From a virus (taxonomy: Duplodnaviria; Heunggongvirae; Uroviricota; Caudoviricetes), in IMG/VR virus record IMGVR_UViG_2531839193_000017: a stretch of DNA of 17,262 nucleotides. One strand, 5' to 3'. Both the position numbers and the translations under genes were made by a program. The notes below the pieces were generated by a model. That model made no database searches. It had not been told where the DNA came from and was given only the letters and a program-made list of their open reading frames with translations. This document shows, piece after piece, positions 14,938 through 16,126 of this stretch. Each line of letters begins with the position of its first letter. Within the stretch, counting starts at the first letter, position 1.

Positions 14938-15282
14938 TTAGTCCTTGCGTAGCTCGCTGATTCTTCTGTAAGTCTCTGGTGCTTTGTTCCCGTACGTCTT
15001 CATTTCAGACTTCAACAGAGCAACGAGTGAATCCCATTCGTTGAGGATTCCTTTGAATGCCGGAACGCGCTTTGCAACCTTGTCGAATGAATCTCTGATT
15101 TCTGGAATCTGCTCAACAAGTGCAACGCATCGCCGAAAGTCTGCTGCGTCATGGGGAGCGCCGAAGTGATGACCATAGATATTCTTTTTCAGGCCACATG
15201 CGATTGAGGCAAGAGTTGCGCTACTGATGCCGACATCGCCAGTTGATTGCCATTTCAAAACCTTCATAGCCAAATCTGACAT
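14938..15282 (-). CDS. hypothetical prophage protein
   Basis: 114-aa ORF with a GGAGA SD about 7 nt upstream of the ATG at 15282; no family recognised. Confidence 0.45.
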   Translation of the reverse strand: MSDLAMKVLKWQSTGDVGISSATLASIACGLKKNIYGHHFGAPHDAADFRRCVALVEQIPEIRDSFDKVAKRVPAFKGILNEWDSLVALLKSEMKTYGNKAPETYRRISELRKD

Positions 15283-15523
15283 TTCTTGTCTCCATAAAAC
15301 AAAACTCGCCGTAGCGAGCTCAGATAAAAGAAATCCCCGTCAGTGCGAGGATGCTGTTCATTGCTGCTATACACTTTTTTGCTCTCAACGTAAGCGGTAG
15401 CCCATTCTGTTGGGTTGGTCAGTTGCTTTTAGGAAATGCTCTTTACCCCTTAAACGTCGGCTGAAAGAGCTAAAATCCATGCAAAAAATTTACGCAATTT
15501 TGTGTATTATTGTGCAGTAAGTA

Positions 15524-16126
15524 ATGAGCTATTTTCTGTGCAAAAAATGGATGATAAATTTGTCCGGGGCAGGAAAAATTTTATGGGCGCTAAACATGAA
15601 AAAAGATTCGTATCCTTATTTGATTTGCATGACAGTTTCAGGGCTGATCTTTATTTTCCTTTTCTTCTGGTGGCGGGCAGATATCTACAGGGTCACGTTT
15701 CTTAATCAGAGTATATCCCACTATTACATTCTGTTTAGCATGGGAATAGCTTTTCTGTTATCTCTGTTTTGGGTTAAGAAGGGGATAGTAAAACAAAGCG
15801 GCTGGAAGAGTCTGTCAGCATACCTTAAGGTTTATGCAGGGATATGCATATTTTCTGGATTTTTTCTGATTATACCCCTTACAACACTAACTTATTTTTT
15901 GCCTGGAGAGACATCGTCTTATGTTGCACCGTATCGGTATACTTCCGGTAGTTCAAAAAGTTGTTCTGGAGCTGAGGTGGATGACCCCGATCTACATGAG
16001 AATATTCGCATTTGCTATCCGTATGGCAATTATGAGTACGATAATATTATCTATGTTGAAAAGAAAATTAATACATTAGGTGCGGTAGTGACATATGCAC
16101 AGACCGCGCGTGATGATACTGAATGA
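15524..16126 (+). CDS. hypothetical membrane protein with Cys-containing C-terminal domain; start uncertain (alternative ATG at 15596)
   Basis: AT-rich ORF with hydrophobic helices (YLICMTVSGLIFIFLFFWW, YYILFSMGIAFLLSLFWV, VYAGICIFSGFFLIIPLTTLTYFL) followed by a hydrophilic domain of about 70 aa (…SSKSCSGAEVDDPDLHENIRICYPYGNYEYDNIIY…). Divergent from the 114-aa ORF. Confidence 0.4.
   Translation: MSYFLCKKWMINLSGAGKILWALNMKKDSYPYLICMTVSGLIFIFLFFWWRADIYRVTFLNQSISHYYILFSMGIAFLLSLFWVKKGIVKQSGWKSLSAYLKVYAGICIFSGFFLIIPLTTLTYFLPGETSSYVAPYRYTSGSSKSCSGAEVDDPDLHENIRICYPYGNYEYDNIIYVEKKINTLGAVVTYAQTARDDTE

Follow-up and report, generated by a model that had tools for sequence, protein, structure and literature searches.

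What do two hypothetical genes left at the end of a truncated prophage encode, and do they act together? The question is raised by a 17,262-nucleotide (nt) stretch of DNA from the IMG/VR virus record IMGVR_UViG_2531839193_000017 (the window), in which a gene of 114 amino acids (aa), ORF114, and a gene for a small membrane protein diverge from one another between torI and a copy of the insertion sequence IS1. An earlier note, made from the letters of the window, read the two as a strain-specific orphan pair. As set out below, what remains of a lambdoid prophage here is a 2.1-kb stump, an early-left end of the phage-434 type that carries two independent accessory genes. The membrane-protein gene fits the description of a moron, and we put forward, as a possible reading to be held tentatively, that its product is a prophage-expressed exclusion or defence protein that would act on the periplasmic side of the inner membrane.

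Two independent modules that abut at this site

Across torI, ORF114 and the membrane gene the window shares 95-98% identity with the part of phage 434 next to int and xis. In aa sequence the 434 proteins are 95.6% (ORF114) and 97.5% (membrane protein) identical to those of the window, and the 1991 entry for 434, M60848, already names ORF114, an ORF55, the membrane gene (partial, as "ORF-22+") and the terminators t-L4 and t'-I. In phage 434 (M60848, OL657227; CPT_434B_33, CPT_434B_36) the two genes have the same order and orientation as in the window. They are also common in chromosomes: of 5426 complete Escherichia coli genomes, 963 hold ORF114 and 915 the membrane gene (~17-18% each), and the 200-aa protein annotated in the window is, letter for letter, the representative of an 873-member sequence cluster whose name is taken from Shigella sonnei. 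Neither gene is thus strain-specific or new to databases, both being already in phage 434. The earlier note was right that the two proteins do not resemble the genes at the corresponding K-12 position; both genes are absent from the K-12 KplE1 layout.

The second part of the orphan-pair idea fares no better, because each gene often occurs without the other. ORF114 is carried by HK022, several mEp phages and Shiga toxin (Stx) phages, and in HK022 and mEp043 it lies directly before xis, without the membrane gene and in an early operon that is uninterrupted. The membrane gene, present in 434, 2B8 and mEp332, is found without ORF114 in mEp332, in one O157:H7 strain and in one O104:H4 strain (in both strains within a prophage adjoining ybhC), and P2-like prophages and some chromosomes hold it alone. 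We conclude that ORF114 and the membrane gene are independent modules that abut here. The two are adjacent and divergent in the window, in 434 and in ~116 E. coli genomes, as would be expected of a divergent two-gene system of the toxin/antitoxin or sensor/effector kind, but each is common without its partner, the phage records hold ORF114 in 277 cases against 6 for the membrane protein, and in 434 itself ORF55 and the terminator tL4 come between them, so that we regard such a system as highly improbable.

A three-helix membrane protein with a conserved C-terminal domain

RefSeq calls the membrane gene as a 200-aa open reading frame (ORF) from an ATG at 15524 (15524-16126, plus strand). Its homologues in Salmonella, Enterobacter, Klebsiella, Cedecea and other E. 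coli (43-78% identity) are 169-180 aa long, and all of the distant ones start with MKK.SYP, which corresponds to Met25 of the window protein at 15596; the Salmonella homologue, moreover, has an in-frame stop 21 nt upstream of its start and a GAGG Shine-Dalgarno sequence. Because of these homologue starts and the upstream stop in Salmonella, the true coding sequence (CDS) is very probably 15596-16126, which encodes 176 aa, and the RefSeq call is probably 24 codons too long. The ambiguity of the start that the earlier note had pointed out is therefore real, and can be resolved to 15596. The short overlapping ORF that it listed at 15502-15705 exists too; we rejected it as a gene, since conservation follows the main frame. 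The frameshift that it suspected was not found: a four-way DNA alignment of the window with 434, mEp332 and E. coli ECC-1470 contains no insertion or deletion across 15524-16126.

By hydropathy and in the AlphaFold2 (AF2) model, which has a predicted local distance difference test score (pLDDT) of 86.9, the 176-aa protein has three transmembrane (TM) helices (residues 6-26, 40-61 and 75-101), the lower of the two numbers (three or four) that the earlier note had offered. Loop 2 comprises 13 residues and is rich in lysine. The helices are followed by a C-terminal beta domain (residues 102-170), for which the family alignment shows the invariant motifs CSGA and ICYP and two invariant cysteines, Cys123 and Cys140; the note had counted three cysteines in this hydrophilic tail, of which only these two are present, and had correctly picked out its Tyr/Asn/Asp-rich stretch, CYPYGNYEYDNIIY. 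Among homologues the C-terminal domain is 56-85% identical, as compared with 33-73% for the TM part.

Lysine and arginine are clustered at the N-terminus and in loop 2, and the C-terminal domain is net acidic. This charge distribution, together with the two invariant cysteines, leads us to infer from the model an N-in/C-out topology with the C-terminal domain in the periplasm, where Cys123 and Cys140 would probably form a disulfide. Only ~18 residues are then predicted to be cytoplasmic. A lipoprotein N-terminus was considered and dropped, since it lacks a lipobox and homologues do not keep Cys11.

The family is small. A hidden Markov model (HMM) search of 1.84 billion representative proteins returned only 61 members, of which the full-length ones keep this architecture and most of the others are shorter partial calls. 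A 112-aa version of the gene is widespread (2321 index blocks of the collection; for example L034:3809-4339), and the DNA upstream of it is identical to that of the intact 176-aa gene, from which it follows that the 112-aa calls are truncated calls of an intact gene; for the same reason we rejected the idea that a separate variant with one TM helix underlies the 112-aa and 90-aa forms. The PHROG 1416 profile (90 aa), which covers only residues 113-200 of the RefSeq protein, is probably a truncated call of the same kind. Separately, positions 122-158 of the C-domain profile matched a 3074-aa protein (P0264) in 10 separate stretches (E 5e-9), which could be a repeat protein of related motif or a compositional artefact.

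Searches of Pfam, NCBIfam, PADLOC and the PDB, by sequence and by fold, assigned neither protein a function. Pfam, NCBIfam and PADLOC scans of both proteins, run singly and with every alignment member, gave nothing above noise; profile searches of the PDB gave nothing significant for either; and Foldseek against BFVD gave no match for the membrane protein at E <= 1e-3. Both ORFs are intact genes and not pseudogene debris.

The membrane gene fits the description of a moron

A moron, in the sense of Juhala and Hendrix, is a transcription unit of its own that a phage genome has gained. The membrane gene lies on the strand opposite to the surrounding operon; 434, 2B8, mEp332 and the window have it, and HK022 and mEp043 lack it at the same site. 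Its GC content is 38.8% (37.9% at third codon positions, GC3), with 31.8% in the spacer downstream and 41.5% in the intergenic region, as against 47.5% for ORF114, 44.3% for torI and a window mean of 47.4%. The earlier note's description of an AT-rich intergenic region of 240 bp thus stands as to the divergence, which spans 241 bp, and as to base composition for the membrane gene and its flanks, but not for ORF114. A hairpin at 16161-16184, 35 nt past the stop of the membrane gene and with a T-rich tail, is identical in 434, mEp332 and ECC-1470 and is predicted to close the moron transcription unit. Because of the opposite strand, the low GC content, the terminator of its own and the absence from sister phages, the gene fits a moron, and these features match the published description (PMC3594210).

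The gene may also have its own promoter, for which we read an extended -10 candidate at 15552-15560 that the consensus scan did not call; the block TGATAA(A/T)TT is kept upstream of two Salmonella homologues that lie in a hotspot of P2-like prophages.

Homologues occupy an anti-phage hotspot of P2-like prophages

Six of the nine non-lambdoid homologues examined lie between the portal gene gpQ and the replication gene gpA of P2-like prophages, as does a very common E. coli allele (P0275). These homologues point against gpA, and their neighbours vary (HicAB, YafO, a 790-aa AAA ATPase, ParM/StbB). The gpQ-gpA interval is the old/tin anti-phage hotspot of P2-like prophages (PMC9122126). Table S5B of Rousset et al. 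(2022) lists as system 4, under the label '3 TM', a 181-aa protein with no domain and 470 occurrences (PMC9122126), and BLASTP aligns this protein with that of the window at 51% identity over 168 aa (E 1e-56). In a 2026 follow-up, six of eight randomly picked cargos of unknown function from the P4 satellite hotspot protected against phages; for the P2 unknowns, antiviral function was put at 15-32% by computational predictions only (PMC13586616).

Two further features of these loci are recorded here for their own sake. In several Salmonella P2 hotspots (L008:4284-4888, L017:4227-4831) an 81-aa and a 119-aa gene, which other loci lack, precede the membrane-gene homologue; the 119-aa product begins MGWIGVDFDGVL, and its DxDG motif recalls phosphatases of the haloacid dehalogenase (HAD) type, with a best Pfam match (E 0.034) that is not significant. 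The hotspot of a Klebsiella michiganensis P2-like prophage (L020:1281-4623) also holds the 790-aa ATPase, of the AAA_16 type, and a 279-aa protein with no domain, which may be a separate candidate defence system.

Proposed function of the membrane protein and its alternatives

How might such a protein act? With its own terminator, perhaps its own promoter and the opposite orientation to the operon, the gene would be expressed from a repressed or decayed prophage. The protein would insert in the inner membrane N-in/C-out with the conserved beta domain in the periplasm and, since almost nothing of it faces the cytoplasm, would act at the periplasmic face. There the beta domain might bind a conserved component of the envelope, or else the incoming tail or ejection apparatus, and the DNA of a superinfecting phage would then fail to cross the inner membrane (superinfection exclusion); of the two targets the envelope component would be the likelier, because the C-terminal domain is so conserved.

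Several observations weigh against an exclusion or defence function. The motifs of the family, which Rousset et al. catalogue, are absent from their table of cloned systems, and neither protein matched a component HMM of PADLOC-DB 2.0.0 at E <= 1. Neither structure nor sequence linked the membrane protein to any known exclusion protein, the literature searches gave no functional or expression data on either gene, and a sigma-70 consensus scan called no promoter upstream of 15596. The P2 hotspot also houses partition systems and a cytolethal distending toxin (PMC9122126), so that a location there can do no more than suggest a defence role. Three homologues stand alone in the chromosomes of Enterobacter, Klebsiella and Cedecea, where no phage gene lies within 5 kb of them, which fits a host envelope function, and the best conserved part of the protein is its periplasmic domain, unlike what is seen in arms-race proteins that face variable phage parts.

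Much of this would suit a protein unrelated to phage exclusion, namely a lysogenic-conversion or envelope-fitness factor captured from a chromosomal enterobacterial gene, which might for example bind a periplasmic or inner-membrane host component and so alter stress tolerance, transport or sensitivity to toxins and colicins. The chromosomal homologues in conserved non-phage contexts, the 56-85% identity of the periplasmic domain and the known non-defence cargo of P2 hotspots all speak for it, as does the precedent of HK97 gp15, whose chromosomal YebO relatives have no effect on phage growth (PMC3594210). Most of the homologues examined, on the other hand, occupy prophage accessory loci of two unrelated phage lineages, and nothing in the Pfam, NCBIfam or PDB searches matched a known envelope family; we think this reading unlikely, while taking it seriously. 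The protein could also be imagined as an abortive-infection effector that permeabilises or depolarises the inner membrane upon infection, as RexB and the transmembrane effectors of retrons and of cyclic-oligonucleotide-based anti-phage signalling systems (CBASS) are thought to do. It is, after all, a small multi-TM protein found in defence hotspots, the only named BFVD architecture nearby is a '2TM beta-strand rich effector' (E 0.34, not significant), and TM proteins in such hotspots are usually taken to be suicide effectors (PMC9122126). Yet a single gene with varying neighbours implies no conserved sensor partner, ~18 predicted cytoplasmic residues leave little with which to sense intracellular phage components, and the gene is stably carried by ~17% of E. 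coli genomes, which together make this function quite improbable.

Finally, the region may be no more than decaying prophage debris without current function, in which the genes are intact only because the IS1 rearrangement is recent. In the window the prophage retains only three genes, flanked by a disrupted csc locus and by IS1, with signs of an IS1-mediated inversion; ORF114 has no adjacent upstream part of its operon, and a 1-bp deletion lies upstream of the membrane gene. Against this stand the full length of both ORFs, the 100% identity of the membrane protein to a cluster of 873 member sequences, the retention of its upstream region and terminator, and the cross-genus conservation of both families, which is typical of purifying selection. 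Debris, too, therefore strikes us as improbable. An exclusion or defence function remains the reading that we prefer, tentatively, for the membrane protein.

Should it hold, a function would be provided for a protein that ~17% of the complete genomes of E. coli encode, those of O157:H7 and O104:H4 strains among them, and that also occurs in phage 434, like the mEp phages a standard laboratory phage, and at ~2.6% of E. coli P2-hotspot loci (470/18,150), and the accessory loci of two unrelated temperate-phage lineages would be linked. The gains for annotation are a probable correction of the start codon by 24 codons and the recognition of the truncated 112-aa calls. Otherwise the region is ordinary, conserved hypothetical prophage cargo in an IS1-eroded remnant, and the gene is best filed as moron-encoded membrane cargo of temperate phages.

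ORF114 is an early accessory gene

ORF114 starts with an ATG preceded by GGAG at 8 nt (14938-15282, minus strand), in keeping with the good Shine-Dalgarno sequence that had been attributed to it, and matches the PHROG 1229 profile over its full length (residues 1-114, E 1.8e-51). A profile search returned more than 1300 homologues, all unnamed, from enterobacterial prophages and from phages of Vibrio, Klebsiella, Mannheimia, Clavibacter and Arthrobacter. The predicted structure is a confident all-helical fold, for which no solved relative was found.

In temperate phages ORF114 is the last gene before xis, where it stands next to four different int/xis types: the lambda type (434, HK022), the SfX type (mEp043), TorI (the window) and that of a Mannheimia phage. 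We therefore considered it as a recombination directionality factor or excision accessory protein. In Vibrio phage D56 and Klebsiella phage Carvaje, however, the homologue is surrounded by early genes, and the ~3.5 kb on each side contain no annotated int or xis, so that co-occurrence is lacking over that distance and a role tied to excision is unlikely.

Within the leftward early (pL) operon ORF114 comes last, between tL4 and t'I. Since tandem hairpins, one of them corresponding to tL4, lie directly upstream of it, it would be a delayed-early gene reached mainly by antiterminated pL transcripts, and in an intact phage its product would be made only after infection or induction. The copy in the window is probably silent, because pL and N are not adjacent there. 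As to function, our guess is a non-essential early protein of host interaction or counter-defence.

The N-terminal half of ORF114 (15115-15282, ~56 codons) is also found, with 91-100% identity, joined to unrelated products of early operons (ERF, Kil, Ea22-like, dATP/dGTP pyrophosphohydrolase and DNA methyltransferase), and has a separate PHROG (8038), which suggests that a recombination junction lies within ORF114.

Put together, the two genes would represent, on the one side, a new single-gene exclusion or defence family common to lambdoid and P2-like prophages, whose disulfide-bonded beta domain would target, from the periplasmic side, a conserved part of the host envelope that phage genomes require for entry and, on the other, an early protein, also new, that would serve counter-defence or host takeover in phages, temperate or not, of several bacterial phyla. 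This combined picture is conceivable, and we offer it with considerable doubt.

Layout of the stump and its rearrangements

The features of the region, with the evidence for each, are as follows.

14615-14815, minus strand: torI, Xis-type excisionase and TorR inhibitor (RefSeq torI label on an identical stretch; weak Pfam HTH_17 and AlpA matches).
14866-14934, minus strand: two terminator-like hairpins between ORF114 and torI (terminator scan, fold, 434 alignment).
14938-15282, minus strand: ORF114, soluble all-helical early accessory protein of 114 aa, PHROG 1229.
15302-15352, minus strand: tandem intrinsic-terminator hairpins directly 5' of ORF114 (terminator scan; fold -20.9 kcal/mol, z -2.9).
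15351-15520, plus strand: what a frameshift has left of a 56-aa ORF that only the annotations of phages 434 and mEp332 list.
15532-15560, plus strand: candidate promoter of the membrane gene, by our own reading (TTTTCT, 17 nt, extended -10 TGaTAAATT).
15596-16126, plus strand: membrane-protein gene, probable CDS of 176 aa (homologue alignment; the RefSeq call is 200 aa from 15524).
16161-16184, plus strand: intrinsic-terminator-like hairpin, a 9-bp stem and then CTCGTTTATT (scan; fold -12.9 kcal/mol, z -2.0).
16275-17042, minus strand: IS1 copy that ends the prophage remnant (InsA and InsB ORFs; homology to 434 and ECC-1470 ends at 16274).

The position that the earlier note gave the two genes, between torI and IS1, is hence correct. 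RefSeq labels both as hypothetical proteins beside torI, which marks the end of the prophage. Rfam and tRNA scans of 14100-16300 gave no match. In intact relatives such as ECC-1470, a TraR/DksA-like gene, genes of the orf63 and orf60a type, exo, bet, gam, kil and cIII come next, a gene order that identifies the leftward early operon of a lambdoid prophage. Of the hairpins around ORF114, the distal one (14881-14866 plus a T-run) occupies the position of the phage 434 terminator t'I, and the promoter-proximal one (15352-15333) matches tL4, in both cases by the M60848 annotation and alignment.

Phage 434 and the window are alike in these flanking terminators and in the terminator 3' of the membrane gene. 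They differ in that the window lacks the ORF55 module, as do KplE1-like relatives in the four-way alignment, has TorI where 434 has a lambda-type Xis, carries a 1-bp deletion at 15419/15420 and is severed by IS1 ahead of the TraR/DksA-like gene, where homology stops. The deletion is the sole nearby indel (GGTTGGT-CAG as against GGTTGGTGCAG in 434, mEp332 and ECC-1470), and it frameshifts the plus-strand 56-aa ORF located 5' of the membrane gene. This ORF, labelled 'putative membrane protein' in 434 and mEp332, stops 3 nt before the ATG at 15524 and has no Pfam match; its standing as a gene is doubtful, because the Prokaryotic Genome Annotation Pipeline (PGAP) omits it and it overlaps tL4 on the opposite strand.

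Every early-left module opens with a shared CATTTnTnnTCTCCA start and Shine-Dalgarno junction (15283-15300 in the window; the starts of ORF55 and ORF114 in L003). The modules themselves are ORF55 plus ORF114 in 434, ORF55 only in mEp332 and ORF114 only in the window, which fits a module swap at the short shared CATTTnTnnTCTCCA sequence.

Beyond the two genes, positions 12708-16274 of the window are collinear with E. coli ECC-1470 at 98.4% identity, while the adjoining segment of the gene for a sugar kinase, upstream of cscB (annotated as aminoimidazole riboside kinase), is inverted on the far side of IS1, at 17262-17043. The two IS1 junctions have 9 bp in common, the size of the IS1 target duplication, and this is evidence, at the level of the DNA sequence, of an apparent IS1-mediated inversion of 12708-16274 relative to 17043-17262. 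The sucrose permease gene cscB (annotated as an oligosaccharide transporter of the major facilitator superfamily (MFS), 12966-14086) appears to be divided into two overlapping ORFs, 12966-13601 and 13427-14086, which suggests a frameshift.

Comparison with known exclusion and defence systems

Small inner-membrane exclusion proteins made by prophages are the systems that the membrane protein appears to resemble in behaviour, although it does not belong to the family of either of the two described here. SieA of P22 is a protein of ~160-175 aa with three predicted TM helices, an uncertain start codon and its own promoter, expressed from the prophage, and it halts DNA delivery at the inner membrane (PMC10883804). 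The window protein shares its size class, the three predicted TM helices and even the uncertain start codon. The conserved SieA motif FxRYPxEAxxFNK is predicted to be cytoplasmic, however, whereas the conserved part of the window protein is the beta domain that we place in the periplasm, and in P22-like phages sieA is located between genes 16 and 9; homology was rejected, as hhalign gave a probability of 0.2% and the motif is absent from the membrane protein. HK97 gp15, likewise an inner-membrane superinfection exclusion protein expressed from the prophage, is encoded by a moron in an operon with its own terminator, and its homologues are confined to Enterobacteriaceae, many of them chromosomal (PMC3594210). 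At 62 aa and with one TM helix it differs in build, and no homology to gp15 or YebO was found (hhalign probability 0.8%). GiPD474, a Gifsy defence protein, was dropped from the comparison, being an ATPase-domain protein.

Among hotspot systems, the 'Hydrolase + 3TM' system, which acts against T7 and was described in P4-like satellites by Rousset et al. (2022), contains, in a cos-proximal defence hotspot, a protein with three TM helices, the number found in the window protein, and the 119-aa DxDG protein that precedes the homologue in some Salmonella P2 loci invites comparison with its hydrolase; that gene is absent from many loci, and homology to the 3TM protein was rejected (hhalign probability 0.2%). 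A homologous counterpart is system 4 of the same survey, which belongs to another phage lineage and locus. It has in common with the window's gene a similar length, three TM helices and the CSGA...ICYP motifs, and it too stands as a lone gene among the accessory loci of temperate phages.

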